A stretch of DNA of 64,000 nucleotides from an uncultured delta proteobacterium (GTDB lineage: Bacteria > Desulfobacterota > Binatia > Binatales > Binataceae). The translations under genes and the position numbers were made by a program. Of this stretch, positions 24,101-56,552 are shown piece by piece. How positions within the stretch are numbered: position 1 is the stretch's first letter; each line of letters starts with the position of its first letter. Below the pieces are notes generated by a model. The model had not been told where the DNA came from. It saw only the letters and a list, made by a program, of their open reading frames with translations, and searched no databases. Location of the stretch: the NCBI GenBank assembly GCA_963756155.1, contig CAVWMQ010000010.1:95672-159671 (forward strand). The letters are read 5' to 3'.

Positions 24101-24526
24101 CTCGATTCCAACCCGAGGCTCGTCCTCTGGGGGCCGACGTATTTGACAGCGTTGAGCGGGGTGCAGGCGCGCGCCGGTCAATTGGAAAAGGCACTGGCCA
24201 CGATCGAGCAAGCCTTCGCTACGGTTGGGGAAGAGCAACTCTATTTGCCGGGTGTGTTGTGGTGGCGCGGCGAGTTGCATCTGCGGCTTGCCGATGAAAC
24301 CAAGGCGGCCGGTGATTTCCGGGAAGCGATCGCCGTGGCCCGGCGCATTGGCTCGAAAGCATTCGTGCTGCGCGCGACGACGAGTCTCGCGCGGCTAATC
24401 GTCAGGCAAGGCAATCGCGACGAGGCGCGCGCAATGCTCGCGGACATCTACAATCAATTCACCGAAGGCTTCGACACCGCCGACCTGAAAGACGCCAAGT
24501 CCCTGCTCGCCGAGCTAAGGGAGTAG
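21189..24526 (+). pseudogene. zinc-ribbon / class III adenylate-guanylate cyclase / AAA (STAND-type) ATPase / TPR protein, interrupted by two +1 frameshifts as assembled
   Basis: The N-terminus has a double zinc ribbon (MRCTKCG..FCNQCA..CPKCAH..FCAECA). The cyclase core is split over three frames: ..APLQI (ORF 21156..21788), RVGANTGEVVVRSIRTGE (ORF 21718..21957), and KTEYTAIGHPVNLASRMQ onward (ORF 21785..24526). A Walker A motif (AEPGVGKTRL), a long helical region and TPR repeats follow. Confidence 0.85.
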
Positions 24527-32522: not shown

Positions 32523-32744
32523 ATGCCGCCGCTCGGAAAAGGACTGATCGTCGTCGGGCTCATCCTGGTCGTGGCGGGAGTCGCGGTATGGGTGTTGCCG
32601 TCGATTCCTTATGCGGGCCGGCTAGGGCGGCTGCCCGGTGACATCTACATCAAGCGGGACAACTTCACGCTTTACTTTCCACTCACCACCGGAATCCTGA
32701 TTAGCGTCGTACTCACAATCCTGTTGTCGCTGATGAGGCGATGA
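32523..32744 (+). CDS. DUF2905 family small membrane protein
   Basis: 73 aa with two hydrophobic helices and the central GRLPGDIYIKRDNFTLYFP motif. Its stop codon overlaps the next gene's start (ATGA). Confidence 0.75.
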   Translation: MPPLGKGLIVVGLILVVAGVAVWVLPSIPYAGRLGRLPGDIYIKRDNFTLYFPLTTGILISVVLTILLSLMRR

Positions 32745-34978
32745 CGGTGGCCGATGAGACGAAGCTGAGCACGCATCGGCTCGCGGAGCGCAAGCGGCGC
32801 CGCCGCGAGCTGATCGCCGTCGGCATCGCGGCCGCGACGCTGGTCGCCTTCGTGCTGGCGCAGACCGAGCTTCCGCCGCTGACCCGGCATACGTCGCTGG
32901 TCTCCAACCTCGCGGTCATCACGCTCTTCAATTTGAGCTTCCTGCTCCTGGGCCTGTTGCTGTTCCTGGTCGGGCGCAATCTCGCCAAGGTCATCTTCGA
33001 GCGCCGCCGCGGACTCATCGGCTCCAAGTTCCAGGTCAGGCTGGTGGCCGGCTTTATCGCCGTGGCGCTGGTACCGAGCGCTTTCCTGCTCTATGTGTCC
33101 GGCGTTTTTCTGCACGCTGATATCGGTAGCTGGTTCAATCCCGAGTACGAGCAGGTGCTCGACGACTCGCTCGAGATCGCAAAGACTTATTACCTGAACT
33201 CCGCGAACAACGCGTCGCACTTCGCGCGCGTACTGGCTGAGGAGGTCGCCAAGCACGACCTGCTCTCGACCGCCAAGCGCCCCGCGCTCCGCGATTACAT
33301 CGAGAAGCGCCAGCAGGAGTACAACCTCGGCACCATCGAGGTGTTCTCCAAGGATCGCAAGCTGCTGCTGCTTGCGCTGAGCCCCAAGACTCCGACCGGG
33401 GTCGGCGTGTCGCCCGACTCAACGCTGATTTCCGAAACGCTGAAAGGGCAGGCGATGACGCGCACTGATCGCCTCTCGCGTTCCGACGTGGTGCGCGGCT
33501 CCGCGCCGATTTATTCCTCGACCGATTCCGACCAGGTGCTGGGCGCGGTGGTGGTCGACTACTTTCTGCCCACCAGCCTCGCCACTCGCGCGACCGACAT
33601 CTCGCGCACCTCGGAGGACTACTTCCAGCTGCGCATCCTGCGCCAGCCGATTCTCAACAGCTATCTGCTGGCCCTGGTGCTGATCGGCCTGGTGGTAGTG
33701 ACGCTCTCTAGCTGGTTCGGGATGTACCTAGCGCGCGGAATCACCGGGCCGATCAAACTACTCGCGCAGGGCACCGAGGCGATCGCCGCGGGAAATCTGA
33801 ACTACCAGATTCCCGAGGTCGGCGACGACGAACTCGGCCGGCTGGTCGATTCGTTCAACCAGATGACCACCGACCTGCGCGTCTCCGGCGCCGAGCTCGA
33901 GCGCCGCCGCCGCTACACCGAGACGCTGCTCCGCAACGTGTCGGCCGGCGTCGTCGGGCTGGACGCGCAAGGGCACGTGACGGCGATAAATCCCTGCGCG
34001 GAGCGGTTGCTGGGGATGGCCGCCGCCGACCTGGTCGGGCGCAACTATGCGTTTGCGTTTCCGCCCGCGCTGGCCCGTGTACTGGAGGATATCTTTGCCT
34101 CCCCGACGCGCCCGCGCGAGGTGCGCGCGACCATCAAGCTGGACTCCAACAGCAACGGCGACAGCGAGCTGATGATGACCGCGAGCCCGCTGGCCGAAGG
34201 CGCCGACGAACCCGGCGGAATGGTGCTGTTCTTTGAAGACGTTAGCCAGATCGCCAAGGTCGAGCGGATGGAAGCGTGGCGCGAGGTGGCGCGCCGCATC
34301 GCGCACGAAATAAAAAATCCGCTCACTCCGATCCAGCTCTCCGCCGAGCGCCTGCGCCGCCAGCTTGGCGGCCGCGACGGCGGACCGTCAGCGCTGGTCG
34401 ACGAATGCACCCGCACCATCATCGGCGAGGTCGAAGATCTCAAACGCCTGGTGAACGAATTCTCCGGCTTCGCACGAATGCCGCATCTCAATCCGCTCCC
34501 CGGCGATCTCAACGCGCTGGCCGCCGAGACGGTCGCGAATTTCCGCGAGGCAAATCCCAACGTCGAGTTCTCGGTCGCGCTAGACCCGGCGCTGCCGCTC
34601 ATCGCGATCGATCGCGAGGCGGTGAAGCGCGCCCTGGTCAACCTGCTCGACAACGCGGTCGCAGCGACCACCACGTACAACGGCAATCGCAATGGCGACC
34701 GGCCGCGAATCGAGCTTCGCACCACACTCAAACCGGATAAGGTGGTGCTCGAGATCGCGGACAACGGACCTGGGATCGAGCCGCGGCTTCGCACCCGCGT
34801 TTTCGAGCCGTACTTTTCCAGCAAGAAGGGCGGCACCGGACTCGGCCTCGCGATCGTCTCCGCGATCATCTCGGATCATCGCGGCTTCGTCCGTGTCGAC
34901 GACAACCAGCCGCACGGAAGTAGATTCATCGTCGAGTTTCCGCTAAAAGAGCAGCAACTCGCCAAGGCAACGGGCTGA
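32741..34978 (+). CDS. ntrY: NtrY-like sensor histidine kinase (TM-HAMP-PAS-HisKA-HATPase)
   Basis: 745 aa. It has an N-terminal multi-TM region, a HAMP domain (GDDELGRLVDSFNQMTTDL), a PAS region, the H-box HEIKNPLTPIQLSAERL, the N box DNAVAA, and the G box GTGLGLAIV. Confidence 0.9.
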   Translation: MTVADETKLSTHRLAERKRRRRELIAVGIAAATLVAFVLAQTELPPLTRHTSLVSNLAVITLFNLSFLLLGLLLFLVGRNLAKVIFERRRGLIGSKFQVRLVAGFIAVALVPSAFLLYVSGVFLHADIGSWFNPEYEQVLDDSLEIAKTYYLNSANNASHFARVLAEEVAKHDLLSTAKRPALRDYIEKRQQEYNLGTIEVFSKDRKLLLLALSPKTPTGVGVSPDSTLISETLKGQAMTRTDRLSRSDVVRGSAPIYSSTDSDQVLGAVVVDYFLPTSLATRATDISRTSEDYFQLRILRQPILNSYLLALVLIGLVVVTLSSWFGMYLARGITGPIKLLAQGTEAIAAGNLNYQIPEVGDDELGRLVDSFNQMTTDLRVSGAELERRRRYTETLLRNVSAGVVGLDAQGHVTAINPCAERLLGMAAADLVGRNYAFAFPPALARVLEDIFASPTRPREVRATIKLDSNSNGDSELMMTASPLAEGADEPGGMVLFFEDVSQIAKVERMEAWREVARRIAHEIKNPLTPIQLSAERLRRQLGGRDGGPSALVDECTRTIIGEVEDLKRLVNEFSGFARMPHLNPLPGDLNALAAETVANFREANPNVEFSVALDPALPLIAIDREAVKRALVNLLDNAVAATTTYNGNRNGDRPRIELRTTLKPDKVVLEIADNGPGIEPRLRTRVFEPYFSSKKGGTGLGLAIVSAIISDHRGFVRVDDNQPHGSRFIVEFPLKEQQLAKATG

Positions 34979-35044
34979 AGGGCCGCGCGCAACTGCGCGC
35001 ATCGCGCATCTCAGCAATAAAGTTCCTATAGAGAGAGCATTGAA

Positions 35045-36322
35045 GTGAACGAAACCGTGTTGGTGGTGGATGATGAGGAGCGGATTCGATCCTCAATTCG
35101 CGGCATCCTGAGCGACGAGGGCTTTCGCGTGGTCGAGACCGGCGACGCGCCCGCGGTGATCGATCTGATCGCGCGCGAGCATCCCGCGATCGTCCTGCTC
35201 GACGTGTGGATGCCCGACCTCGACGGCATCGAGCTGCTGCGGCGGATCAAATCTGAACAGCCACAGGTGCCGGTGATAATGATTTCCGGCCACGCGAATA
35301 TCCAGAGCGCGGTAGCGGCGACCAAGCTCGGCGCCGCGGATTTCATTCAGAAGCCGTTTTCGGTCAGCGGATTGCTCGCATCGATCGCGCGCGCCCTCGA
35401 CGACGGGCAGCCTGCCGCGCAGGTGGCGAGCGCGCCGGCGCAGGAGAGCGCCGGCGTCGCGAATCGCAAACAGACCTCGCGGCTCGGTGCGCGACCGCAG
35501 CGCACCATCGCGCGATCGATCGTGATGGGCGGGCAGGGGCTCCACACCGGGCTCAAGACCGGGGTGATTCTGCATCCCGCGCCCACCGGCTCCGGAATCG
35601 TGTTCTCCTCGCTCGCCGATGAAACCGCGGTCGCCGCCTGTCTGGAGAACGTCAGCGACACCGGTTACAACACCACGCTCACCAGCGGCGGACGCTCGGT
35701 GCGGACTGTCGAGCATCTGATGTCCGCGCTGCACGCATTCGGGATCACCAACCTGCTGATCAAGACCGATGACGAGGTCCCGGCGCTCGACGGCTCCGCG
35801 CTGGAATTCTGCCGCCAGCTCACCGAAGCCGGCGTGACCGATCAGGATCGGACCGTCGAACCGATCCGAATCACCAAACCGATCGTGATCGGCGAGGAGG
35901 GCGAAGGATGCGAGTTCATCCGCATCGAGCCCGCCGACGTGCTGACTATCGACTACACGCTCGACTATCCGGAGCCGGTCGGCATCCAGCGCGTGCATTT
36001 CGAGCTGTCCTCACCCGAGTCATACACGCGCGAGATTGCGCCGGCACGCACCTTCACTTTCGTCAAGGAGTTTCGCAAGCTCTGCGAGATGGGACTGGGA
36101 GCGGGCGGGCGCCTGGACAATCTGATCCTGGTCGACGAGGTCAAGGTGGTGAACACCACGCTGCGCTTTCCCAACGAATTTGCGCGCCACAAGGTGCTCG
36201 ATCTGATCGGCGACCTCTACCTGTTTGGACGGCCGATCGTCGGGCATGTCACCGCGTCGAAGACCGGACACTCGGACAACCTGGCGATGGTGAAGGCGAT
36301 CCGCGGCTCGCTCGCAGCATAG
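35045..36322 (+). CDS. lpxC: response-regulator receiver domain fused to UDP-3-O-acyl-N-acetylglucosamine deacetylase (REC-LpxC)
   Basis: GTG start. The REC motifs VVDDEE, LLDVWMPDLDG, MISGH and IQKPF are present. After a linker of about 40 aa comes an LpxC domain with TVEHL, ARTFTF, RHKVLDLIGDL and KTGHS. Confidence 0.9.
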   Translation: MNETVLVVDDEERIRSSIRGILSDEGFRVVETGDAPAVIDLIAREHPAIVLLDVWMPDLDGIELLRRIKSEQPQVPVIMISGHANIQSAVAATKLGAADFIQKPFSVSGLLASIARALDDGQPAAQVASAPAQESAGVANRKQTSRLGARPQRTIARSIVMGGQGLHTGLKTGVILHPAPTGSGIVFSSLADETAVAACLENVSDTGYNTTLTSGGRSVRTVEHLMSALHAFGITNLLIKTDDEVPALDGSALEFCRQLTEAGVTDQDRTVEPIRITKPIVIGEEGEGCEFIRIEPADVLTIDYTLDYPEPVGIQRVHFELSSPESYTREIAPARTFTFVKEFRKLCEMGLGAGGRLDNLILVDEVKVVNTTLRFPNEFARHKVLDLIGDLYLFGRPIVGHVTASKTGHSDNLAMVKAIRGSLAA

Positions 36323-39243: not shown

Positions 39244-40026
39244 TCACGCACTGGACTCAGGCTGGGCGCGTTCCGGAACCATCGCGGGCGCATAAGCGGT
39301 GTTGCACGGCGCCCCGGGCGCGAACCAATGCTCGACGTGTCCGGGCTCGGTGCCGAGGAAAATCAGGCTGGAGGAGCGAGTGCCGTAGCCGTCGAGGTGG
39401 AGGCATAGCGAATTGGGCCGGTCGCCGCCGCGCGAGTCGAGCTGGGTTTCGTGATCGGCGAGAATCGCGCCTAGCTCGTCCTGCATCGCGACCGGATCGC
39501 GGCGGAACTCGGCGTGCTCGCCCAGGCGCGCGAACTTGCTGTAGGAGCGGCTGATCTTCGGACATTCGAAATCGTCGACGTCGAGATTGGTCAGCAGGTG
39601 AAGGCCAGGCGTCAGCGGCACCATCGCGATCACGCCGTCGCGATTGTGCGCGACCCAGGCTTCCTCACGCGAGGCGATCAACAGGTTAAACGGATTGTAG
39701 TCGCTGCCGCGCTGCGCGCGCGCGAAGCGGGCCGCGTCGGCGGCGTTACGCTGGCCGAGCGCATCCAGGCATAGCAGCCCGCGCGAGCGAACGTCGGGAT
39801 TGGCGCCCTCGACCGCACGACGGTTGAGCAACCCGGCCACCACTCCATACTCGTTGATTCCGAGCCACGTGCCGCCTGCCTTCAGATCCTTTCCACCGAC
39901 GACGTGCGGATGATGCGCGAGCGTGGTCGGGTTGCCGGCCGGACGCGCCAGGAACTCATCGCGATTCGCCGCTATCACGACCGGATAGCTGCGGGTCACT
40001 TTGAAATAAATCGCCAGCGTACACAT
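39244..40026 (-). CDS. NRDE family protein (TANGO2/DUF833-like)
   Basis: Start taken at MCTLAIYF, the Met-Cys start typical of this family. The eponymous motif VIAANRDEF is present. Confidence 0.85.
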   Translation of the reverse strand: MCTLAIYFKVTRSYPVVIAANRDEFLARPAGNPTTLAHHPHVVGGKDLKAGGTWLGINEYGVVAGLLNRRAVEGANPDVRSRGLLCLDALGQRNAADAARFARAQRGSDYNPFNLLIASREEAWVAHNRDGVIAMVPLTPGLHLLTNLDVDDFECPKISRSYSKFARLGEHAEFRRDPVAMQDELGAILADHETQLDSRGGDRPNSLCLHLDGYGTRSSSLIFLGTEPGHVEHWFAPGAPCNTAYAPAMVPERAQPESSA

Positions 40027-40099
40027 CACCTTCATAATTGGCAGGAGCGGACGCTCCTCAGCAAGGGGCAATACGCAATCGTTCTGGTACACTTTTGCT

Positions 40100-41344
40100 G
40101 TGGCGGCGCACCCTCTCGAGAAGGCCCATTTCGACGTGATTCTGATCGGCGCCGGCGTGATCGGCAGCTCGGTCGCGATGGGCTTGGCGGAGCGCGGGCT
40201 CAAGGCGCTCGCGGTCGATATCGACCTTAGCGGGCGCCTGAGCTCGAGTGAGAAAAACGCCGGCGGCGTGCGCGCCACCTGGTGGCAGCGCGTCAATATC
40301 GCGCTGTGCCGCGCCTCGATCGAGTACTACGAACGGGTGCGCGACGAAGTCGGGTTCCGCCAGAAGGGCTACTTGTGGCTCTACGGCGACGACACCTGGG
40401 ACAAGGCGCGCGAGCATCTGACGATTCAGCGCGAGCTCGGACATCCGATCGAAGCGCTGACTGCCGCCGAGGTGAATCGCCGCTTTCCGGAGATCGACCA
40501 GCTCGAGGGAATCGCGGGCGCGACCTTCTCGCCCGCCGACGGGCTCATCAATCCGAACCTGCTCAAGGAGCACTACCGGGCGCGCGCGCGTGCGGCGGGC
40601 GCGCAATTTCTCGACCGCACTTTCGTGCTCGCGATCGAGCCGGGCGGCTCCGAGGTGCGAATTCAATGCTGGCAGGCCGACGATGCGCTGAGCGACGCCG
40701 AACTCACGCGGATGATGACGCAAGATCCACCGGTAGAGCCGGGGCAGGGAGAATCCGAGACCGGGCGGCTGTTGGAGCTGCGCGCGGATTCGATCGTGAT
40801 CACCGGCGGCGCATGGTCGCCGCTCGCGCTCAAGCTGCTCGGACTCAGGAACTGGAGCCAGCCGGTTCGCCGCCAGGTCTGCATCGTTGACAGCCGCGTC
40901 ACCAACCTCGCGCAATACGGGATGATCGTCGACACCTCGGGCGTATACTTTCACAACGAGGGGCCGCACATCCTGGCTGGATACTCGCCGCGCGAGGAGC
41001 CGCCCGGCTATCACTTCAACTACGACGGCGAGCAATTTTTCCTTAACGAGATTTGGCCGCGAATGTTCGCGCGGATGAGCTCGATGGAGCGGCTGAAGCA
41101 CGTCACCGGATGGGCCGGGCTGTACGAGGTCTCGCCGGATCGCAGCGCGATCGTAGGGCGCGCGATGGCGCGGGTGTTCGAGGCGCACTCGTTCAGCGGC
41201 CGCGGCGTGATGCAGTCCTACGGGGCGGGGCAGGCGCTCGCCGACCTGATCGCGACGGGCAGCTACGGCCGCTTCGACGCGAGCGCGCTCTCGCGTGATC
41301 GCTTCGAGACCGGTGCGCAAGTCTGGGAAGAGCTGCACATCTGA
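40100..41344 (+). CDS. FAD-dependent oxidoreductase (DAO family, sarcosine/glycine oxidase-like)
   Basis: GTG start. The dinucleotide-binding motif DVILIGAGVIGSSVAMGLAERG is present. The protein is 414 aa. Confidence 0.88.
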   Translation: MAAHPLEKAHFDVILIGAGVIGSSVAMGLAERGLKALAVDIDLSGRLSSSEKNAGGVRATWWQRVNIALCRASIEYYERVRDEVGFRQKGYLWLYGDDTWDKAREHLTIQRELGHPIEALTAAEVNRRFPEIDQLEGIAGATFSPADGLINPNLLKEHYRARARAAGAQFLDRTFVLAIEPGGSEVRIQCWQADDALSDAELTRMMTQDPPVEPGQGESETGRLLELRADSIVITGGAWSPLALKLLGLRNWSQPVRRQVCIVDSRVTNLAQYGMIVDTSGVYFHNEGPHILAGYSPREEPPGYHFNYDGEQFFLNEIWPRMFARMSSMERLKHVTGWAGLYEVSPDRSAIVGRAMARVFEAHSFSGRGVMQSYGAGQALADLIATGSYGRFDASALSRDRFETGAQVWEELHI

Positions 41345-41474
41345 TCTCGCCCGCGACCTGCAAAATCGCATCGCAAGCCCATGAAAACCGCGCGATGGGT
41401 TTGTCTCCCAGTCGTATATAATCGCTCGGTCCGGGGGACGCGGCGGGCATAGGGCGTCACCGGCACTGGCGACG

Positions 41475-44400
41475 ATGATCTGTAATTCATGCGGATGTCC
41501 GAACGCAGCCGATCGCAAATTCTGCGGTGGATGCGGAAAGACGCTCGTGCCCGCAAGTGGCGCGTCGCGAGCGCAAGCGGCGCCGCAGTCGTCCGGCGCG
41601 GCATCGCAAACCTCGATCATATGCAACGCGTGCGGATGTCCCAACGACGCGGGCCGCAACTTCTGCGGCGGATGCGGCGCGGCGCTCGCAGTCGCATGCC
41701 CGTCGTGCGGCGCGCCGCATCGCGTCGAAGAGCGATACTGCGGCGCGTGCGGCAAATCGTTGGACGGAGCGAAGTCGGGATCGGCAGGGGCGTCGTCGCA
41801 ACCCTCGACGCTGTCCGCGGGAGCGTCGTCCGCGGCGCAGTCGCCGATGCCCACTTCGATCGCCGGCGGCCGCTATCGCGTGCTCCAGCTGCTCGGCGAA
41901 GGCCGCAGCAAGGTCGTCTATCTCGCGCATGACGCCGCGATCGATCGCGACGTCGCCATCGCACTGTTCAAGATCGATCAACTCGACGAAGCCGGTCGCG
42001 AGCGCACCAGCCGCGAGGCGCGCGCGATGGGCCGCCTCGGCGAACATCCGCACATCGTCAACATTTACGACATCGGAGAGGAGGCCGGCCGGCCGTACAT
42101 CGTCAGCCAGTACATGCCCGGCGGCTCGGTCGACGATTTGATTAGGCGCCGCGGCCGGCGCGGGCTCGCGCTCGACGACGCGATCCGGATCGCGACGGAG
42201 GTGGCCGACGCGCTCGACTATGCGCACTCGCGCGGCGTGATTCATCGCGACCTCAAGCCCGCCAATGTTTTCATCGCGCAGAACGGGCAGAGCATGCTCG
42301 GCGACTTCGGCCTCGCGATCGCGCCCGACCAGTCGCGACTCACCGTGCAGGGCATGATGGTCGGCACCGTCGCGTACATGCCGCCCGAGCAAACGCTCGG
42401 CAAGCCGCTGGAGCCGCGCAGCGATCTCTACTCGCTCGGCGCGATGCTGTTCGAGATGCTGACGGGACGGCCGCCGTTCATCGGCGACGATCTGATGGCG
42501 ATTCTCACGCAGCACGTGAGCGCTGCGCCGCCCGTGCCGTCGTCGATCGCGCCCGAGGTGCCGCGCGCGCTCGACGACTTGGTGCTGCGGATGCTCGCGA
42601 AGACGCCGGAGGCGCGGCCCGCGAGCGCGGCGACGGTGCGCGATCAGTTGCGCTCGATGACGTCGGCACCGCCGGCGGCGATCGACGTGATCGCATCGAC
42701 GGTCATGATCGAGCGGCCGAACCTGCGCGCGCAGTCGGCGCCCGACGGCACCGTCAGCATTTTATTTTCGGACGTCGAGAATTCCACGATCATGACCGAG
42801 CGCCTGGGCGACCTTCGGGCGGCCGAAGTGATGGGCGTGCACAATCGGATCATACGCGACCAGGTTGCCAAACAGCAGGGTTTCGAAGTCAAGGCGATGG
42901 GTGACGGCTTCATGATCGCCTTTGCCAGCGCAAGACGTGCCTTGAATTGCGCTATCGGCATCCAGCGTGCCTTGGCTGACTATTGCCGCGATAACCCCGG
43001 CGTACCGATTCGCGTGCGGATCGGGATCAACATGGGCGAGGCGATCCAGGAGGAGGGCGATTTCTTCGGCAAGGCCGTGATCCTCGCCGCGCGCATCGGG
43101 GCGGCCGCCAAGGCCGGCGAAATCCTGGTCTCACCGACGGTCAAAGAGGTGACCCAGAGCGCCGGCGATCTCCGCTTCGACGACGGCCGCGAGATGCAGC
43201 TCAAGGGCCTGGCCGGCAACTATCGCGTCTATCGCGTGAAGTGGGCCGCCGGCGAGCAGAACTGTCCGCGATGCGCCCGGCCGCTGCCCCCCGGCTCCGA
43301 CGAATGTCCGTTCTGCACCGCGAGCACTGCGCGAGGCCCCGTGTCGACCGAACCTAGTATCGCGGCGGCCGACACTCGCGCCGTCCGGCGCCGCGACCGG
43401 GTGCGGAGTCCGACGCGCCGCTGGATCGTGCTTGCGATCATCGCCGTCGTCGTGATCAGAGGCGCGTTCGCCGGCCACGGGTTTTTTCACGATCAGCAGC
43501 AGACCCCCAAACAGGCGCCGGAGAACTTGCAATCCGGATCGCCGGCCCCAGCCCCGGCTGCGATCGCGCCGAATGCTGCGACTGCCGCGCCGAATCCGCA
43601 AGTCGCCGCGATCGCTCCGGCTCCCGCGGCGTCCGAGCTGCAGGAGACGACCAGCAACGGCTTCGCTCCGAAGAACGCGGTCGTCGAGCTCAACCATTTG
43701 CGCCGCGCCGCCGGACTGCTCGCCGTCCTCGGCGACCCAGCGGCGCACGAGGCCAACGTGATCCGCGCGCGCAAGGTGCTCGATAAGTACGAGGAGGACC
43801 ACGGCTCGGCGTCGCAGGGCGAGACCGGCTCCGCCGCGATGCCCGATCTGAACGATCGCATTGTCGGACGTCCTACGTACGGGCCTGACGGGCTTGGCGC
43901 CGCGCCTACCGCCTTCGTGTTCAAGGGCCTGGGCCGGCGCTTCACCGGCGCCGAGATCCTCAATCGCATGGCGGCGATGCCGTTCGCGGCGCTCAGGTTT
44001 CTCGATCCGCAACTCGCCGAAATCGGATTTGGCAGCGCGTGCTCGAAGGGCGAATGCTGCGCGCTGGTCACGATGCAGCGCGGCCTGGCGAAGCCGCTCA
44101 GGATCAAGATGTTCGTGGCGACCGAGCGCGATCGCACCTGGAATGCCGCGCTCGGTCCGATACCGCCGACGCGCGGCCGGCTGAAGATGCCGGTTGAATT
44201 TCCGCCGCCGGGCGCGGCGACCACGACGCTCGCGTATCGCGGCGGCGACTGGCCCAATCCGATCGCGGTGTGCCCCGGCTACGCGCTGCCGACCGGTCCG
44301 GCGGTGATCCTCGAACTCGGCGCGGGATCAAACGGCGCGGACGATCCTCTGATCTCGAGTCATTTGATCACGCGCGCCGGCGCCGAGGTGCCCAACTGCC

Positions 44401-44600
44401 TGGTACGGCCGTCCGCGTTTCGCAAGGCCAACGAGCTGTGGGGGCAGGCCGCGCGCGGATTTCTGAGCGGCGCCGGAGCGGTGATGCTGATCCCGCGCGA
44501 GCCGCTGGTGCCCGGCAGCTCCTACACCGTCTCGATCACCGCCGACTCGACGCCGTACACGTGGTCGTTCACTGCCGCGTCAGCGCCGGCGGCGCCGTAA
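41475..44600 (+). CDS. multidomain signalling protein: zinc ribbons - Ser/Thr protein kinase - class III nucleotidyl cyclase - zinc ribbon - TM - periplasmic domain
   Basis: 1041 aa. It has CxxC..CxxC ribbons, kinase motifs HRDLKPANV, DFG and TVAYMPPE, cyclase motifs ILFSDVENST, KAMGDGFMIAF and RIGINMGE, a CPRC..CPFC ribbon, the TM helix WIVLAIIAVVVI, and a C-terminal region of about 370 aa. Confidence 0.9.
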   Translation: MICNSCGCPNAADRKFCGGCGKTLVPASGASRAQAAPQSSGAASQTSIICNACGCPNDAGRNFCGGCGAALAVACPSCGAPHRVEERYCGACGKSLDGAKSGSAGASSQPSTLSAGASSAAQSPMPTSIAGGRYRVLQLLGEGRSKVVYLAHDAAIDRDVAIALFKIDQLDEAGRERTSREARAMGRLGEHPHIVNIYDIGEEAGRPYIVSQYMPGGSVDDLIRRRGRRGLALDDAIRIATEVADALDYAHSRGVIHRDLKPANVFIAQNGQSMLGDFGLAIAPDQSRLTVQGMMVGTVAYMPPEQTLGKPLEPRSDLYSLGAMLFEMLTGRPPFIGDDLMAILTQHVSAAPPVPSSIAPEVPRALDDLVLRMLAKTPEARPASAATVRDQLRSMTSAPPAAIDVIASTVMIERPNLRAQSAPDGTVSILFSDVENSTIMTERLGDLRAAEVMGVHNRIIRDQVAKQQGFEVKAMGDGFMIAFASARRALNCAIGIQRALADYCRDNPGVPIRVRIGINMGEAIQEEGDFFGKAVILAARIGAAAKAGEILVSPTVKEVTQSAGDLRFDDGREMQLKGLAGNYRVYRVKWAAGEQNCPRCARPLPPGSDECPFCTASTARGPVSTEPSIAAADTRAVRRRDRVRSPTRRWIVLAIIAVVVIRGAFAGHGFFHDQQQTPKQAPENLQSGSPAPAPAAIAPNAATAAPNPQVAAIAPAPAASELQETTSNGFAPKNAVVELNHLRRAAGLLAVLGDPAAHEANVIRARKVLDKYEEDHGSASQGETGSAAMPDLNDRIVGRPTYGPDGLGAAPTAFVFKGLGRRFTGAEILNRMAAMPFAALRFLDPQLAEIGFGSACSKGECCALVTMQRGLAKPLRIKMFVATERDRTWNAALGPIPPTRGRLKMPVEFPPPGAATTTLAYRGGDWPNPIAVCPGYALPTGPAVILELGAGSNGADDPLISSHLITRAGAEVPNCLVRPSAFRKANELWGQAARGFLSGAGAVMLIPREPLVPGSSYTVSITADSTPYTWSFTAASAPAAP

Positions 44601-44685
44601 TGGGTTTCCTCGATGTTGCTGCGCGTGATATTGGATTTGGACTGCGCCGGTGCGTGGGTGACGCCGCTACCGTCGAGGAGGGTTG

Positions 44686-45645
44686 ATGTTTTCATCGATC
44701 GAGGATGTCATCGAAAGATTCGCCAGCAACAATTATATCGCGAGCCGGCGAATCGCGACCGTCATCTACCTGGCCGCCGAGCTTAAAAAGCCCGTGCTGG
44801 TCGAGGGCCCCGCTGGTGTCGGCAAGACCGATCTCGCCAAGGTACTCGCGCTCGCGCTCGGCTTCGAACTGATTCGGCTGCAGTGTTACGAGGGCCTGGA
44901 TGAGGGCAAGGCGCTGTACGAATGGGAGTATGCCAAGCAGCTTCTGTACACGCAGATTTTGAAGGACAAGATCGGCGAGGTGCTGGTCGGCGCGCGCGGG
45001 CTCAAGGAAGCGGTCGACATGATCGCGAAGGAAGACGACGTGTTCTTCTCCGAGCGCTTCGTGCTGCCGCGCCCGCTGTTGAAAGCGATCTCGAGTCCGC
45101 AGCCGTCGGTGCTGCTGATCGACGAGATCGACAAGGCCGACGCGGAGTTCGAGGCGTTCCTGCTCGAGTTGCTGTCCGATTTCCAGGTCACCGTGCCGGA
45201 GCTCGGCACGCTGAAGGCCAAGCATATCCCGCTGGTGGTGCTGACCTCGAACAACGCGCGCGAAATGTCCGACGCGCTCAAGCGCCGCTGCCTGCATCTG
45301 TATATCGACTTCCCGGATCGCGCCCAGGAGCTTGCGATCATCAAGATCAAGGCGCCCGAGGCGGCGCAGAAGCTCGCCGAGGAAGTCGTGACGGTGGTGC
45401 AGTCGCTGCGCAAGCTCGATCTCAAGAAAGCCCCGGGCATCAGCGAGACGCTGGACTGGGTGAAGGCGCTGACCCTGCTCAACGTGCAGACGCTCGACCA
45501 GGAGCTGGTCAACGAGACGCTCGACACGATCGTGAAGTACGAGGGCGACGTGCGCAAAGCGCAGGAAGAGTTGAAGGACTACGTGCGGCGGGTGCGCGCG
45601 CGCCGCGGCACCGAGGCGGGCAGCGACAAGGACCTGCTGAACTGA
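44686..45645 (+). CDS. MoxR-family AAA+ ATPase (CoxD-like)
   Basis: ATG at 44686 (TTG at 44683 is an alternative) follows GAGGAGG. Walker A (GPAGVGKT) and Walker B (VLLIDEIDKA) motifs are present. The protein is about 319 aa. Confidence 0.92.
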   Translation: MFSSIEDVIERFASNNYIASRRIATVIYLAAELKKPVLVEGPAGVGKTDLAKVLALALGFELIRLQCYEGLDEGKALYEWEYAKQLLYTQILKDKIGEVLVGARGLKEAVDMIAKEDDVFFSERFVLPRPLLKAISSPQPSVLLIDEIDKADAEFEAFLLELLSDFQVTVPELGTLKAKHIPLVVLTSNNAREMSDALKRRCLHLYIDFPDRAQELAIIKIKAPEAAQKLAEEVVTVVQSLRKLDLKKAPGISETLDWVKALTLLNVQTLDQELVNETLDTIVKYEGDVRKAQEELKDYVRRVRARRGTEAGSDKDLLN

Positions 45646-45659
45646 TCGAGTCATAAACG

Positions 45660-47072
45660 ATGGAAGAAAAGCTCGTCGAATTTGCAAATCTGCTCCGCGA
45701 GAACGGCGTGCGCGTCTCGCTGGCGGAGACGCTCGACGCGTTCTTCGCCTCGGAAGTGACCGGCCTTGGCGAGCGCGACGCGTTCCGGTCGGCATTGCGC
45801 GCCACCATGGTCAAGCGCGCCTCGGAGCTGCCGGTTTTCGAGGAGCTGTTCGACATTTATTTTTCCGGCCTGGGCGAGATCATCAAGCAGGCCAGCCAGG
45901 CGGTGCAGAACGCGCTCTCGATGTCTGACCAGGAATTCCAGAAGTTCCTGGAACAGGTCGAGGAGATGCTCAAGAAAGAGGGCAAGAACCTCTCCGATCT
46001 CGCCAAGAAACTCCTGCAGAACAACTCCGGCGAGATGGAGCGGCAGATCCGCGACGCCGCGCGCGCGGTGCGCCTGAAGGGAATCGAGCGCACCATCGAG
46101 GAGAACTATTTCGCGCGCGCGCTCGCGCGTCAGCTCGGGCTGGACAAGATCGAAGCGGAGATCCGGGAGCTGCGCGAGCAGCTCGAGAAGATGGACATCG
46201 GCTCGGCGCTGCGCGGCAAGCTCGAGGAGTACCTGGAGCGGCGGCTCAAGGCGCTCGACGACATCATCCGGCGCTACGTGCGGATGGAGCGCGAGAAGCG
46301 CGACATCAAGCAGAAGGAAGATCCGCGCTTCAACCAGATCGGCGAGAAGAGCTTCTACTACCTGACCGAGGAAGAGCTGCGGAAGATGAACGAGGCGGTG
46401 ACGCGCCTGGCGCAGCGCCTCAAGAACGTGATCACGATCCGGCGCAAGCGCGCCAAGAAGGGCCGCTTCGACATCAAGCGCACCCTGCGCCAGAACATGG
46501 AGAACGGCGGGGTGCCGTTCAAGCTGCGCTTCGAGCGGCGCAAGAAGGAAAAGCCGCAGGTGCTGATCCTGTGCGACGTGTCGGATTCGGTGCGCAACGC
46601 CTCGCGCTTCATGCTGCAGTTCGTGTACTCGCTGCAGGATCTGTACTCGCGGGTGCGCAGCTTCATTTTCGTGTCCGACATCGGCGAGGTCACCGAACAT
46701 TTCCGCAACAACGACGCGAAGGAGGCGCTCGACGTCGCGCTCAAGGGCGACGTCATCAACGTCTACGCGCATTCCAATTTCGGCTATGCGTTCCGCAACT
46801 TCGTGGCCGACCATCTTGGTGCCGTGAACAAGCGGACTACCGTGATCGTGCTTGGTGACGCGAGGAATAACTACAACTTGCCACACGACTGGTGCCTGCG
46901 CGAAATCCGCCAGCGCGCCAAGCGGGTCATCTGGCTCAATCCCGAAAGCCGCAACACCTGGGGTTTCGGCGACAGCGAGATGGAACGCTATGCCGTGCAT
47001 TGCGATCTGGTGGAAGAGTGCCGCAATCTCAACCAGCTCTACCGGGTGATCGATCGCCTGGTCGCCGCCTGA
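45660..47072 (+). CDS. VWA domain protein (CoxE-like)
   Basis: It has the MIDAS motif LCDVSDSV and the C-terminal stretch VIVLGDARNNY..VIWLNPE typical of CoxE-type VWA proteins. It starts 15 nt after the MoxR gene. Confidence 0.9.
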   Translation: MEEKLVEFANLLRENGVRVSLAETLDAFFASEVTGLGERDAFRSALRATMVKRASELPVFEELFDIYFSGLGEIIKQASQAVQNALSMSDQEFQKFLEQVEEMLKKEGKNLSDLAKKLLQNNSGEMERQIRDAARAVRLKGIERTIEENYFARALARQLGLDKIEAEIRELREQLEKMDIGSALRGKLEEYLERRLKALDDIIRRYVRMEREKRDIKQKEDPRFNQIGEKSFYYLTEEELRKMNEAVTRLAQRLKNVITIRRKRAKKGRFDIKRTLRQNMENGGVPFKLRFERRKKEKPQVLILCDVSDSVRNASRFMLQFVYSLQDLYSRVRSFIFVSDIGEVTEHFRNNDAKEALDVALKGDVINVYAHSNFGYAFRNFVADHLGAVNKRTTVIVLGDARNNYNLPHDWCLREIRQRAKRVIWLNPESRNTWGFGDSEMERYAVHCDLVEECRNLNQLYRVIDRLVAA

Positions 47073-53196: not shown

Positions 53197-53871
53197 ATGC
53201 GCGTCGCGCTCGCGGCCGTCGCGGGGCTCGCGTTCGTGGCGTGCTCGACGTCAAGTGTGCCTGCGCCAGAGCGCCCTGCCCTCGCGCCGATCGCTGCGCC
53301 CGGCGCGCCGCCTGCTCGCCCCGGATCGATCATCGGAACCGCGTCATGGTACGGGCCGGGCTTCAACGGCCGTCCCACCGCCAGCGGCAGGATTTATGAT
53401 CAGGAAGAACTGACGGCGGCCTCGGAGCTGTTCGTGCTGGGGACGCGGGTGATGGTCACGCGGCTGGATACCAACCGATCGGTAGAGGTGACGATCAACG
53501 ATCGCGGGCCGTATGCGAAGGGGCGCAAGATCGATCTGTCGCACAAGGCGGCGGTGGTGCTCGGCATGATCGGGCCGGGCACGGCGCGGGTGCGGATGGA
53601 CGTGCTGAGCGCGCCGCCGGGCTCGCGGGCGGCGGGCAGTCCGATGATCTACTTCGTTCAGATCGGATCGTTCTCGCGCTCGGGCAACGCCGATCGGCTT
53701 CGCAGCCGGCTGGCGAGCTACTATCCCGACGTCCGCGTCGATCAGCTTGATGCAGGTCAACGGCGATATTACCGTGTGCGGATGGGTGCGTTTACGACAC
53801 GTGCCGCGGCTGAGCAGCGCGCCAGTTCCAGCGCCCGCTTCGGGCTCCCGATTGTGATCGTGAGTGAATGA
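53197..53871 (+). CDS. rlpA: septal ring lytic transglycosylase RlpA family lipoprotein with SPOR domain
   Basis: A lipobox is present (LAFVAC). The DPBB region reads GTASWYGPGFNGRPTASG..VTINDRGPY. The C-terminal SPOR domain reads YFVQIGSFS...YYRVRMGAF. The start could instead be 53149 or 53176. Confidence 0.88.
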   Translation: MRVALAAVAGLAFVACSTSSVPAPERPALAPIAAPGAPPARPGSIIGTASWYGPGFNGRPTASGRIYDQEELTAASELFVLGTRVMVTRLDTNRSVEVTINDRGPYAKGRKIDLSHKAAVVLGMIGPGTARVRMDVLSAPPGSRAAGSPMIYFVQIGSFSRSGNADRLRSRLASYYPDVRVDQLDAGQRRYYRVRMGAFTTRAAAEQRASSSARFGLPIVIVSE

Positions 53872-55208
53872 AAGACCGGGCGGCCGCATCTCCGGGGGCA
53901 GCCTGGCGGCGCCTCTGGCCGCTGGCCGCGTGCGCTTTTCTTTTGTCAGCGTGCGCGTACGAGCTGGTGAGCGGCGGCCAGGTCAATCAGCTTCAAGCCG
54001 CGAAGATCGAAGCCGGCATCCAGCAACTGCGGCAGTTGCCCTTCAAGAGCAAGGTGCCGCTGGTCGTCAAGACTCCCGACGAGGTCGAGAAACTGCTGGT
54101 CGCCGACATGGCGCGCGATACCACCGACGATCAGTTCGAAGTCGATGGCGCGGCGGGCGCGCTGCTCGGGCTGTACCCGGTGGGAATCGATCTGAAGGCG
54201 GCGACGCTCAAGCTGCTGAAGAGCCAGGTCGCGGGCTTCTACGATCCGCATCAGAAGCAGATGGTGCTGGTCGAGGGAGGATCGAATCTTGGGTTCTGGA
54301 GCGGCACCACCGAGTTCCTGGTGCAGCGCGACGTGGTCGGCGAGTTGCTGCTCGCGCACGAGTTGACGCACGCGCTGCAGGATCAGAACTTCGGCATCGA
54401 GCAGAGCCTCGACAAAGTCAAGAACGACGACGACCGAGCGCTCGCGCTCAAGTGCGTGATCGAGGGCGACGCGACGCTGGCAGGGTTCGCATACGTGATG
54501 GGCGGGATGAGCGACGCCACCGCCGATACGCTGGTCGATCATCTGCAGGACCTGCCGCAGGCGTTCGCGGCGGAATCCGCGGACACGCCGGAGGGGCTCA
54601 GCGCGCCGCTGCTGTTTCAGTATTCGCAGGGCGCGAGCTTCGTCGCGGAGGCGTACCGGCGCGGAGGATGGGCGGGGGTCGACGCGCTGTATCGCAATCC
54701 GCCGCAATCCAGTCATCAGATCATCCACCCGGCGTTCTACTTCGATCGCCCTGCCCCGCCGCTCAATGTTTCGATCGGCGGCTATCAGAGCGTGATGGCG
54801 GGATGGACCAAGGCGGACGAGGACACTTATGGCGAGCTGCTGCTGCGCACGATCCTGGAGCGCAACCTGGGCAAGGACTCGTACGACGTCGACCTGGCGC
54901 GGCTGTGGGCCGGCGATCACATGGTCATCCTGCAGGAGGGGCGCGGGCTCACCGTGATCTGGATGCTCGCGTTCGACGACCAGCAGACGGCGAGCCATTT
55001 CGCGGAGGTGTACGCGACGCTGCTCGATCGGCTGCTCGACGGCGTCACCGAGCATCGCATCGACTACCGCGGCAACGCGGTGCTGGTGCTGATCGGCGAA
55101 GGCGCGCAATATTTCAACACGCTGGCGCCGTCGATCTGGAGCGCCAGCCGAATCGATTCGCGTCCAGCGGGCGGGGTGGTCGAATCGGCTGACTCGCAGT
55201 CACCGTAG
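53868..55208 (+). CDS. putative secreted/lipoprotein zinc metalloprotease-like protein (HExxH), paralog 1
   Basis: The ATG overlaps the rlpA stop codon (ATGA). It has a lipobox (FLLSAC) and the motif LLLAHELTHALQDQNFG. It is colinear with the next gene along its full length. Confidence 0.8.
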   Translation: MKDRAAASPGAAWRRLWPLAACAFLLSACAYELVSGGQVNQLQAAKIEAGIQQLRQLPFKSKVPLVVKTPDEVEKLLVADMARDTTDDQFEVDGAAGALLGLYPVGIDLKAATLKLLKSQVAGFYDPHQKQMVLVEGGSNLGFWSGTTEFLVQRDVVGELLLAHELTHALQDQNFGIEQSLDKVKNDDDRALALKCVIEGDATLAGFAYVMGGMSDATADTLVDHLQDLPQAFAAESADTPEGLSAPLLFQYSQGASFVAEAYRRGGWAGVDALYRNPPQSSHQIIHPAFYFDRPAPPLNVSIGGYQSVMAGWTKADEDTYGELLLRTILERNLGKDSYDVDLARLWAGDHMVILQEGRGLTVIWMLAFDDQQTASHFAEVYATLLDRLLDGVTEHRIDYRGNAVLVLIGEGAQYFNTLAPSIWSASRIDSRPAGGVVESADSQSP

Positions 55209-55244
55209 AACGATCGCGCGCAATCGCAAATAATACGGGGCCGC

Positions 55245-56552
55245 ATGACTAGAGAATCCGCGGCGGGGTTCGGCACGCCGGCGATCGGCGCGCTGTTGGT
55301 GCTGGCGAGCGTCGCGATCGCGAGTGCGCAGACCACAGTCCTCGGCCCCGACGATACCGCGCGCGTCCGCGATCGCGTCCAATCGATGCGCGGGCTCAAG
55401 TTCAGCAGCAAAGTTCCAATCTCGTACCTCACCGTCGGCCAGGTGCAGGCGCGATTCAAGGCGGAGTTCGCGCGCGAGGTCACCGAGGAGCAGCTCGCGA
55501 CCTCAGTCGAAGAAAACAAGATGATCGGGCTCTACCCCGCCGACTTCAAAGTCGACATGGATCGCATGGCGACGGTGGGGATGGAGTTGGCGGGCTTCTA
55601 CGACTCGCGCCGCAAGGACCTGGTTATAGTCGATCGCCCGCTGAGGGTCGCGGTTCCCGAGCGATTGCGCGACGCCGTCGAGATGTACGAGAAGCTCGAG
55701 ACCGCCGGCGTGCTCGCGCACGAGTTCACGCATGCGCTTCAGGATCAGAACTACGATATCGGAACCACGCAGCAGCATAACAAAAGCAACGACGATCGCG
55801 AGCTGGCGTTCAAGGCGGTCGTCGAGGGTGACGCGACGCTCTCCGGCTTCGGCGTGGTGTTTGGACGGTTGGATGACGCCACGATGGACTACTTTCTTTC
55901 CCATCTTCAGGAGATCGCGCCGGTGTTCATGGCGCGCACCGAGGGGATGCCGCGCGCGATAATCGAGCCGATGATGTTCGAGTACTTCGACGGCGCGCGG
56001 TTCGTCGCGGAAGCATTTCATCGCAAGGGCTGGCCGGGGGTGAACGCGTTGTTCACCAAGCCGCCCCAATCAACTCAGCAGATCCTGCATCCGGAGCTGT
56101 ACTTTGAGACACCCACCGCGCCGAAGATCGTGAAGCTCGCAGGCTACGAGAAGAGCCTCCACAACTGGACCAAGGAGGACGAGGACACTTACGGCGAGTT
56201 GCTGATCAAGATCATCCTGGAGCGCACCATGGGTGAGTCGACGCCTTACGTCCAGGCCGCGAGCAAGTGGAGCGGCGATCGAATAATCGCGCTGGCCAAA
56301 GGCAAGTCGGTCACAGTTTTGTGGATGATCGTGTTCCGCGACCGCGACTCCGCCGACAACTTCGCCCGCCTCTACCCGCGCGTCCTCGACAAGGTCCTGC
56401 CCAGCTCGACGGCGCGCCGCGTCGAAGAGCGCTCCAACGTGGTGCTCGCGATGATTGGCGATGGCGCGATTCGCTCGCAGCAGTTTCTTCCCGAGGTGTG
56501 GAAACAGAGCACCGTCGACGGTGCGGCGATCCCGGCGTCACCGCATCCGTAG
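55245..56552 (+). CDS. putative secreted zinc metalloprotease-like protein (HExxH), paralog 2
   Basis: A signal peptide is present (LLVLASVAIASA-Q). It has the motif VLAHEFTHALQDQNYD and shares blocks with paralog 1 (VEGDATLxGF, FxAEAxxRxGWxGV, YGELL). Confidence 0.8.
   Translation: MTRESAAGFGTPAIGALLVLASVAIASAQTTVLGPDDTARVRDRVQSMRGLKFSSKVPISYLTVGQVQARFKAEFAREVTEEQLATSVEENKMIGLYPADFKVDMDRMATVGMELAGFYDSRRKDLVIVDRPLRVAVPERLRDAVEMYEKLETAGVLAHEFTHALQDQNYDIGTTQQHNKSNDDRELAFKAVVEGDATLSGFGVVFGRLDDATMDYFLSHLQEIAPVFMARTEGMPRAIIEPMMFEYFDGARFVAEAFHRKGWPGVNALFTKPPQSTQQILHPELYFETPTAPKIVKLAGYEKSLHNWTKEDEDTYGELLIKIILERTMGESTPYVQAASKWSGDRIIALAKGKSVTVLWMIVFRDRDSADNFARLYPRVLDKVLPSSTARRVEERSNVVLAMIGDGAIRSQQFLPEVWKQSTVDGAAIPASPHP

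Follow-up and report, generated by a model that had tools for sequence, protein, structure and literature searches.

Bacterial Hanks-type kinases such as PknB, StkP, and PrkC place an N-terminal kinase domain in the cytoplasm and a C-terminal sensor outside it, joined by one transmembrane (TM) helix. They are of the RD type with a threonine in the activation loop, and kinases of the PknB type are activated by dimerization and trans-autophosphorylation. PknB has the canonical lysine on strand β3, a serine at the glycine-rich loop position discussed below, and PASTA sensors; it contains neither a cyclase nor zinc ribbons. In WNK kinases the catalytic lysine is rearranged, and the rearrangement has been linked to ion and osmotic sensing. 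Human WNK1 (PDB 5w7t and 6cn9) carries a lysine in the glycine-rich loop (GxGxxK) and a small residue other than lysine on strand β3. According to Kannan et al. 2007 (PMC1821047), the WNK lysine occupies the position of PKA G55, is needed for catalysis, and touches ATP, and WNKs are the sole functional ePK family without K72.

Fusion of a kinase to a class III cyclase is an established bacterial architecture, as documented by the curated NCBIfam model TIGR03903 ("TOMM system kinase/cyclase fusion protein"). Animal receptor guanylyl cyclases are single-pass proteins with a kinase-fold domain before a class III cyclase and a dimerization-dependent output, and class III cyclases must dimerize to be active. 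The transition-state asparagine is essential for catalysis in mammalian cyclases, according to the title of a work cited by PMC4215837. Ma1120 (PDB 4wp3 and 4wp9), a small standalone class III adenylyl cyclase of Mycobacterium avium, is active with an alanine (A164) in place of the asparagine and with the arginine (R168) kept, and the substitution A164N drastically lowers its activity (PMC4215837).

The gene analyzed here lies in a window of 64,000 nucleotides from a Candidatus Binataceae bacterium. In our reading (probability roughly 0.55), it encodes a dimerization-driven single-pass receptor with two most likely active outputs, a kinase and a cAMP-forming cyclase. According to the ORF listing of the window, a single ORF (41475..44600, + strand, ATG start) encodes 1041 residues, and its translation contains every motif quoted in the first-pass annotation. 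The domain order claimed there is borne out by a Pfam profile scan together with sequence features (Table 1). DZR/Zn_Ribbon profiles match three stretches within residues 1–96, Pkinase (PF00069) matches residues 134–387 (3.4e-49; 168.1 bits, cut-off 31.7), and Guanylate_cyc (PF00211) matches residues 422–586 (7.8e-18; 65.1 bits, cut-off 21.9). No Pfam match falls on residues 590–1041, and the fourth ribbon has no significant Pfam match of its own. Ribbons 1 and 2 are a tandem duplicate. The N-terminal ribbons are conserved from residue 1 (82% identity, dN/dS 0.22) in the ortholog of locus L001, which aligns over residues 1–1041 with 77% identity. The N-terminal two-thirds of the protein, comprising three zinc ribbons, the Ser/Thr kinase, the class III adenylyl cyclase, and the fourth ribbon, would be cytoplasmic, and the C-terminal third, in which a Pro/Ala linker leads to a degenerate CAP-like domain and then to an Ig-like domain, would be outside the cytoplasm.

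Table 1 Features of the kinase-cyclase gene and its product.
Feature	Residues	Coordinates	Strand	Basis
Three N-terminal CxxC..CxxC zinc ribbons, predicted cytoplasmic	1-96	41475..41762	+	Pfam DZR 1.1e-10, Zn_Ribbon_1 1.2e-9
Hanks-type Ser/Thr kinase domain, WNK-like active site	131-395	41865..42659	+	Pkinase; StkP, PknB
K146 codon, Gly-rich-loop Lys (GEGRSK), proposed relocated catalytic lysine	146	41910..41912	+	Conservation, WNK1 alignment
A163 codon, β3 position of the canonical catalytic Lys	163	41961..41963	+	Alignment to PknB K40, WNK1 C250
Class III nucleotidyl cyclase, Ma1120-like, ATP-type specificity residues	422-590	42738..43244	+	Guanylate_cyc; Ma1120
I536 codon, canonical transition-state Asn position (N-x-x-x-R)	536	43080..43082	+	Aligned to Ma1120 A164
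Fourth zinc ribbon CPRC..x12..CPFC, predicted cytoplasmic, membrane-near	597-616	43263..43322	+	Read from sequence
Single TM helix, N-in/C-out	650-671	43422..43487	+	Hydropathy, charge bias
Pro/Ala/Gln-rich extracytoplasmic linker	672-735	43488..43679	+	Composition; model pLDDT <50
Degenerate CAP/PR-1-like domain	736-900	43680..44174	+	Foldseek; homolog Pfam CAP matches
Ig-like β-sandwich domain, conserved Cys pair C933/C975	901-1038	44175..44588	+	Foldseek

The kinase domain matches StkP and PknB best (HMMER; 1e-50, 175 bits). The alignments set A163 (DVAIA) opposite the β3 lysine (DVAVK; K40 in PknB), confirming that the canonical lysine of the PF00069 VAIK motif is absent. Other catalytic elements are present, namely HRDLKPAN (residues 257–264), DFG (residues 277–279), and the αC glutamate E181, and, as in PknB, the kinase is of the RD type with threonine residues in the activation loop. 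Residue counts were taken over 240 relatives, 120 around the query and 120 centered on a Chloroflexota member. The third glycine of GxGxxG is a lysine, K146 in the window protein, in all 240 of them. The β3 column holds alanine (217), serine (19), glycine (3), or valine (1), and never lysine. G141, G143, E181, H257, R258, D259, K261, D277, and F278 are invariant, N264 is kept in 238 relatives, and G279 is likewise absent from only one or two. Canonical bacterial kinases that the scan also recovered (Bacilli PrkC-like, Brocadiia) combine GxGGMx with VA[VIL]K.

In an ungapped BLASTP alignment with WNK1 (29% identity, 80 bits), GEGRSKVVY..DVAIA of the window kinase is paired with nine residues of WNK1 followed by ..EVAWC, such that K146 coincides with WNK1 K233 (in GRGSFK) and A163 with WNK1 C250. 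The window kinase therefore carries the WNK signature, a lysine at the third glycine of GxGxxG and a β3 residue other than lysine. The β3 residue is cysteine in WNK1 and alanine or serine in the bacterial family. Unlike WNKs, which have DLG, the window kinase has DFG; it is part of a membrane receptor of a bacterium and shares its polypeptide with a cyclase, and nothing in it suggests chloride sensing. The closest relationship is not to WNKs, with 80 bits to WNK1 against 175 bits to StkP/PknB. Because the domain is much closer to PknB/StkP than to WNK1, the WNK-like trait appears convergent rather than inherited. The protein scores 289 with NF033483, below the cut-off of 450.

By analogy with WNKs and from its conservation, K146, on strand β2 in the glycine-rich loop, would contact ATP and pair with αC E181 in place of A163, and the kinase domain is most likely catalytically competent with K146 replacing the β3 lysine. 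The WNK arrangement would then have been reached independently inside the PknB-like lineage. The first-pass annotation had instead pointed to K166, three residues past the β3 position. We reject K166 as the compensating lysine: its column is lysine or arginine in relatives, and it is arginine in PknB, which has a normal β3 lysine.

The closest solved relative of the cyclase is Ma1120 (4wp3; 1.5e-46), and the similarity reaches the N-terminal ERPxL segment. I536 and R540 align to Ma1120 A164 and R168 in the N-x-x-x-R register, in agreement with the proposal that the transition-state asparagine is replaced by isoleucine. Both metal-binding aspartates, the substrate-specifying Lys/Asp pair, and the transition-state arginine are kept, as in Ma1120. 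Among 120 relatives, D433, D477, and R540 are present in all, and K473 and D529 in 116. The column of the missing asparagine contains isoleucine (87), valine (22), asparagine (10), or alanine (1). The window cyclase thus falls with Ma1120 in having a residue other than asparagine at the A164 position and the equivalent of R168; it differs in being part of a 1041-residue receptor and in having the bulkier isoleucine where Ma1120 has alanine. Ma1120 also has an asparagine two residues upstream (GRNVAMAAR). The window protein has an alanine there (GKAVILAAR; A534), so an asparagine displaced by two positions is rejected and neither register contains one. By analogy with Ma1120, the cyclase is most likely catalytically competent, belonging to a subgroup that works without the transition-state asparagine. 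Given the retained metal-binding aspartates, ATP-specifying Lys/Asp pair, and arginine, cAMP is the expected product. A second cyclase with PVNLASR, noted previously in the window, is indeed present at about 21153–24523, but appears to be split by a frameshift.

The first-pass annotation had offered two alternatives for the deviant residues, displaced catalytic residues or a scaffold of pseudo-enzymes. Displacement fits the kinase and fails for the cyclase, in which the asparagine is dispensable in the subgroup and nothing is displaced. The scaffold alternative is disfavored because the catalytic residues are invariant and because purifying selection is strongest on these two modules: dN/dS relative to the L001 ortholog is 0.13 in the kinase and 0.07 in the cyclase (92% identity), the most constrained module, against 0.34–0.46 in the ectodomain. 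To judge from the alignments, the absent β3 lysine and the absent asparagine look like conserved family traits with active precedents, not decay.

Residues 650–671 form the only hydropathy peak of the protein (KD 2.09, window 19). Eight Arg/Lys residues are present in the 15 residues before this segment and one in the 15 residues after it, a strong positive-inside bias. Standalone homologs of the C-terminal module have signal peptides. Together with the conserved Cys pair, these features support the earlier assignment of the C-terminus to the outside of the cytoplasm. The linker is 55% identical to that of the L001 ortholog. Structure prediction gives a folded ectodomain model of moderate confidence (AF2 pLDDT 71.5, pTM 0.74), for which a fold search returns CAP-like and Ig-like matches. 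For residues 736–900, Foldseek retrieves P14a and GAPR-1 (E about 5e-4, target TM 0.5–0.6), and of 50 homologs of the C-terminal module retrieved by a profile search, 43 match CAP (PF00188; best 6.8e-17), bearing out the faint CAP resemblance previously noticed by eye. The domain shares its fold and the N-terminal helix motif xLNxxR with the CAP/SCP/PR-1 superfamily and with bacterial secreted CAP + Ig-like proteins. In contrast to the superfamily, the window sequence itself has no PF00188 match even at E ≤ 1, nor at E ≤ 0.01 in the scan of the homologs, and its conserved His/Glu cavity residues are replaced by arginine. The family-conserved H, Y, N, E, and D correspond to R764, K767, K771, R795, and N830, with R764 and R795 in the His/Glu cavity columns; the kinase-fused proteins P0002–P0004 and P0159 have lost these residues as well. 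Therefore, a ligand is unlikely to be bound in the usual CAP cavity. For residues 901–1038, Foldseek retrieves the Ig-like domains of the L,D-transpeptidase LdtMt2. The Ig-like domain has the highest pLDDT in the model and retains the conserved P, C, G, W, and F columns. The extracytoplasmic C-terminus thus consists of a degenerate CAP/PR-1-like domain and, after it, an Ig-like domain.

Kinase and cyclase in one polypeptide had been considered uncommon, which is wrong for the zinc-ribbon-kinase-cyclase core: it has more than 7000 database matches, and TIGR03903 describes a related fusion. In relatives the core carries SPOR, DUF4019, Sel1, TonB_C, Kelch, TPR, or AAA_16/TPR modules; the only rare element is the fusion to the CAP/Ig ectodomain. 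Full-length kinase-cyclase relatives bear the names Binatota, Chloroflexota, and Actinomycetota, and the second sample also contains kinase fragments with Gammaproteobacteria and Thermoanaerobaculia names. In the first sample, every full-length relative has zinc ribbons and an asparagine-less class III cyclase in the same polypeptide. Membership in TIGR03903 itself is rejected: the score (144.3) is far below the cut-off (705.75), the match spans only positions 4–457 of the 1267 of the model, and the large relatives tested are also below the cut-off. Relatives of about 1470 residues, with a zinc-ribbon-kinase-AAA_16/TPR-cyclase order, have the same WNK-like kinase. Unlike these and TIGR03903, the window protein lacks AAA_16/TPR, is membrane-anchored, and has an ectodomain. 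Relative to animal receptor guanylyl cyclases, the window protein runs the other way across the membrane, its catalytic part preceding the TM helix. Its kinase retains all catalytic-loop residues, and its cyclase has ATP-type residues; the likeness considered is one of architecture and shared domain families.

Three other readings were weighed against an active receptor. The kinase domain could be a regulatory pseudokinase that binds ATP or dimerizes, gates the adjacent cyclase, and phosphorylates nothing. The β3 lysine is missing from the alignment with PknB and StkP, the usual sequence rule classes a kinase lacking any of three key catalytic residues, including this lysine, as a pseudokinase, and the kinase-then-cyclase order is that of animal receptor guanylyl cyclases with their kinase-homology domain. 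However, pseudokinases commonly lose the HRD aspartate, the catalytic-loop lysine and asparagine, the DFG aspartate, and the αC glutamate, all of which are kept without exception here save N264 in two relatives; the loop lysine is invariant at the exact WNK position; and the domain is of the PknB-like RD type with an activation-loop threonine. We consider this reading quite unlikely. Doubt about the cyclase carries more weight: the window copy could be weak or dead, mainly a dimerization or regulatory module for the kinase, with phosphorylation as the sole real output. With A534 and I536 it has no polar residue at either position, whereas position 534 is T, S, N, or H in 94 of the 120 relatives, and the asparagine is essential in mammalian cyclases by the cited title. 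Being non-polar at both sites, the window copy may be a poorer cyclase than its relatives. Yet the metal-binding aspartates, Lys/Asp pair, and arginine are retained in the most constrained module of the protein, alanine occurs at 534 in 25 of the relatives, and the work on Ma1120 (PMC4215837) indicates that the asparagine is dispensable, even harmful, in the subgroup. A weak or dead cyclase is therefore unlikely, though to be taken seriously.

Finally, the long ORF could be an assembly or gene-fusion artefact of separate kinase, cyclase, and secreted CAP-like genes, given that the C-terminal module is found mostly as standalone secreted proteins of 320–390 residues and that one database gene call (P0001) is truncated. 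Against this, the uninterrupted architecture recurs in L001, L076 (P0003), and L077 (P0004), three other independent assemblies with the same gene neighborhood (conserved TANGO2, DAO, and MoxR flanking genes), P0159 (1046 residues) has a similar length and a C-terminal CAP/Ig module at residues 731–1044, and GC3 in frame is 0.83 over the entire ORF. The same full-length architecture and neighborhood in the three loci indicate that the ORF is not an assembly artefact, and the fusion reading, effectively refuted, is scarcely credible. MoxR lies 3' of the kinase-cyclase gene in all four loci, and in the window and L001 a VWA gene follows MoxR. Between the kinase-cyclase gene and MoxR/VWA, neither a terminator nor a promoter-like site was found. 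MoxR/VWA as an operon partner is nevertheless rejected, the conserved order being equally explained by close relatedness. No FHA, PP2C, or cNMP-binding gene was seen near the kinase-cyclase gene.

For the receptor with two active outputs, we propose that the ectodomain associates in a ligand- or envelope-dependent manner. Because class III cyclases require dimerization, which also activates kinases of the PknB type, ectodomain association would turn on both outputs together, and the kinase may also tune the neighboring cyclase through phosphorylation. The apparently new element is the bacterial "with-no-lysine" kinase family: in the full-text literature searched, neither bacterial WNK-like kinases nor the zinc-ribbon-kinase-cyclase fusion family are described, though an earlier account may exist elsewhere. 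That a large multi-phylum family of bacterial PknB-like kinases evolved the WNK solution independently, moving the lysine from strand β3 to the glycine-rich loop, is a tentative proposal to which we give somewhat less than even odds. If true, functional "with-no-lysine" protein kinases would for the first time be known outside eukaryotes, contrary to the statement in PMC1821047 that among functional ePK families WNKs alone lack K72. If K146 is catalytic, relocation of the lysine to the glycine-rich loop evolved at least twice, and a simple bacterial system would be at hand for studying why the rearrangement arises. The rules "no β3 Lys = pseudokinase" and "no Asn = inactive cyclase" would misannotate thousands of bacterial proteins. 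The protein, from the poorly studied phylum Binatota, would offer a compact model in which one receptor combines protein phosphorylation and cAMP formation in one polypeptide with swappable sensor domains.

The target gene is a single open reading frame (ORF) of 1041 aa. Its translation contains every motif quoted in the first-pass annotation, and past residue 590 the Pfam scan gives no match. The hydrophobic helix is preceded by eight Arg/Lys residues within 15 positions and followed by one within 15, so an N-in/C-out topology is predicted. The gene is not an artefact, since its full architecture recurs in three other assemblies. A Candidatus Binataceae MAG (locus L001) encodes an ortholog 77% identical to the target, the match spanning residues 1–1041, and two more distant assemblies (L076, protein P0003; L077, protein P0004) encode the same architecture. 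A MoxR AAA ATPase gene (+) lies downstream of the target in all four loci and is followed by VWA_CoxE (+) in the window and L001. No terminator-like site separates the target from MoxR. Among the loci with upstream sequence (the window, L077, and L001), a TANGO2-like gene (−) and a DAO oxidoreductase gene (+) precede the target in the window and L077, and DAO is present in L001. Across the loci MoxR is 89–98% identical, as against 55–77% for the target.

Coordinates of the features, with dN/dS and identity from a codon-level comparison of the target with its ortholog at L001
Feature	Position	Strand	Pfam E-value	dN/dS	Identity
Target ORF	41475–44600	+
Three N-terminal zinc-ribbon stretches	aa 1–96		1.1e-10 (DZR)	0.22	82%
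Protein kinase domain	aa 134–387		3.4e-49	0.13	89%
Class III cyclase domain	aa 422–586		7.8e-18	0.07	92%
Fourth ribbon (CPRC..CPFC)	aa 597–616
One hydrophobic helix	aa 650–671
Fourth ribbon, juxtamembrane/TM, Pro/Ala linker				0.45–0.56	48–67%
CAP-like domain	aa 736–900 (43680–44174)			0.34	70%
Ig-like domain				0.46	76%
Conserved gene order (also L001, L076, L077)	39244–47072
Kinase-less relative	21153–24523	+
Its two reading frames, which split the cyclase domain	21153–21785; 21764–24523
NtrY-like HAMP/PAS histidine kinase	32705–34975
Receiver (aa 13–122)–LpxC (aa 160–427) fusion	35021–36319	+
Two adjacent ORFs	53868–55205; 55209–56549 (together 53868–56549)	+

HMMER alignments to StkP and PknB (1e-50) place the query DVAIALFK opposite PknB DVAVKVLR, indicating that the β3 Lys is truly replaced by Ala (A163), as had been proposed by eye. 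The Lys three residues further on (K166), to which the first-pass annotation also pointed, is an implausible substitute, the corresponding residue being Arg in PknB and Lys or Arg in relatives. In the Gly-rich loop of the target, GEGRSK(146)VVY, a Lys occupies the usual third-Gly site of GxGxxG. The Gly loop-to-β3 stretch of the query (GEGRSKVVYLAHDAAIDRDVAIA, 23 residues) aligns without gaps to WNK1, whose kinase sequence was confirmed to be identical to PDB 5w7t, indicating that K146 corresponds to WNK1 K233 and A163 to WNK1 C250. In WNKs (eukaryotic with-no-lysine kinases), the Lys is shifted from K72 to position 55, touches ATP, and is needed for catalysis; WNKs have been called the sole functional ePK family without K72 (Kannan et al. 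2007, PMC1821047). The target kinase scores 80 bits (29% identity) against WNK1 and about 175 bits against PknB. It is thus far nearer to PknB, indicating that the WNK-like arrangement is convergent.

The Gly-loop Lys is a family trait. It is present in 120/120 of the best relatives of the whole target protein (β3 residue Ala in 106, Ser in 14) and in 120/120 relatives centred on a Chloroflexota member (Ala in 111, Ser in 5, Gly in 3, Val in 1), a sample with source names from Dehalococcoidia, Acidimicrobiia, Actinomycetota, Gammaproteobacteria, and Thermoanaerobaculia. Neither sample shows any variation at E181, H257, R258, D259, K261, D277, or F278, and N264 and G279 deviate in one or two sequences each. 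Ordinary bacterial kinases from the same genome scan (Bacilli PrkC-like, Brocadiia) have the canonical GxGGMx and VA[VIL]K.

The closest solved protein to the target cyclase is Ma1120 of Mycobacterium avium (1.5e-46). In the N-x-x-x-R register, the Asn site of the query (GKAVILAAR) is occupied by I536, in agreement with the by-eye reading, and the Arg site by R540; Ma1120 (GRNVAMAAR) has A164 and R168 there. Ma1120 is reported to work as an adenylyl cyclase with Ala at the transition-state Asn site, its activity falling drastically in the A164N variant (PMC4215837). Among 120 relatives, the metal-binding D433 and D477 and the transition-state R540 are each found in 120/120, and the substrate-specifying K473 and D529 in 116/120 each. 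The canonical Asn position, 536, is Ile in 87, Val in 22, Asn in 10, and Ala in 1. Two residues upstream, position 534 is Thr in 35, Ala in 25, Ser in 24, Asn in 23, His in 12, and Asp in 1. The target has Ala at 534, leaving no polar side chain at either position, and its cyclase could therefore be weaker than those of most relatives.

Either catalytic module might be read as non-enzymatic. A KHD-like pseudokinase, lacking as it does the β3 Lys, is disfavoured by the invariance of the catalytic residues in the kinase relatives, and a purely structural role for this copy of the cyclase, with I536 at the Asn site, is disfavoured by the precedent of Ma1120. The strongest constraint in the target, measured as dN/dS against L001, falls on these two "defective" modules.

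For the C-terminal region, a word-indexed search gives about ten relatives, most of them standalone proteins of 320–390 aa with signal peptides, whereas a full HMMER profile run against 1.84 billion representatives matches 2538 clusters at E ≤ 1e-3, of which 751 reach E ≤ 1e-30. Pfam CAP (PF00188) matches 43 of 50 sampled homologs (best 6.8e-17), with no match in the target's own region. An AlphaFold2 model (pLDDT 71.5, pTM 0.74) matches solved structures in both halves: PR-1/P14a and GAPR-1 in the first (E about 5e-4, target TM 0.5–0.6) and, in the second, Ig-like domains from the L,D-transpeptidase LdtMt2. The faint CAP likeness noted at first pass is therefore real. Judged from its sequence, the target's CAP-like copy is degenerate: five polar columns of the family (His, Tyr, Asn, Glu, and Asp) are R764, K767, K771, R795, and N830, which would make the surface more basic. 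The remaining kinase-fused members show a similar loss at these columns, which most of the standalone secreted proteins do not. In the Ig-like half, the Pro, Cys, Gly, and Trp positions conserved in the family are retained, among them the Cys pair C933/C975. The module is also C-terminal in other long proteins, e.g. P0188 (903 aa) and P0135 (842 aa), and FHA domains occur in 2 of the 50 homologs. CAP plus Ig-like appears to recur as an extracytoplasmic module in bacterial signalling through Ser/Thr phosphorylation.

The zinc-ribbon–kinase–cyclase core is abundant (at least 7438 proteins at E ≤ 1e-10; 8000 candidates scored), and its CAP/Ig-bearing version is rare (P0001–P0004 and P0159). Among the best 120 core matches, read by eye, the core is joined to AAA_16/TPR STAND modules (about 1470 aa) in about 47, SPOR in about 31, DUF4019 in about 30, and Sel1, TonB_C, Kelch, and TPR in a few each. 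In the one STAND-type relative scanned (P0111), a cyclase is matched by the last part of the chain (residues 1309–1468), a location that would explain why none of the 47 aligns over the cyclase region. NCBIfam TIGR03903 is a curated kinase/cyclase fusion model, and the target and its large relatives match it only partially, with scores under the cut-off.

The window also contains a kinase-less relative of this signalling family (DZR zinc ribbon, class III cyclase, AAA_16, MalT-like TPR) that retains the canonical Asn (GHPVNLASRM). Its first frame runs off after '...APLQI', so the gene is apparently frameshifted, whether as a pseudogene or through misassembly. Elsewhere in the window, a response-regulator receiver is fused N-terminal to LpxC directly downstream of an NtrY-like histidine kinase; receiver-controlled LpxC, if so, would be an unusual route for control of lipid A synthesis. 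Two adjacent high-GC3 ORFs of about 446 aa each have no Pfam match at E ≤ 1e-5.

Kinase–cyclase fusions, active cyclases without the Asn, and PknB-like receptor topology are already known. In the literature available to full-text search, we found neither a family-wide WNK-type Lys relocation in bacterial Hanks kinases nor a fusion of a WNK-type bacterial kinase to a CAP/Ig ectodomain; either may have been described before. The most economical reading is that the target is a modular receptor cassette with an exchangeable sensor domain. The analysis establishes the residue registers, conservation, selection, topology signals, and fold class; we infer that the kinase and cyclase are catalytically competent, that the cyclase makes cAMP, and that both cytoplasmic enzymes depend on dimerisation. 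In this member, the divergent CAP/Ig ectodomain would govern the pairing of two chains, and with it both trans-autophosphorylation and the assembly of the two composite cyclase active sites.
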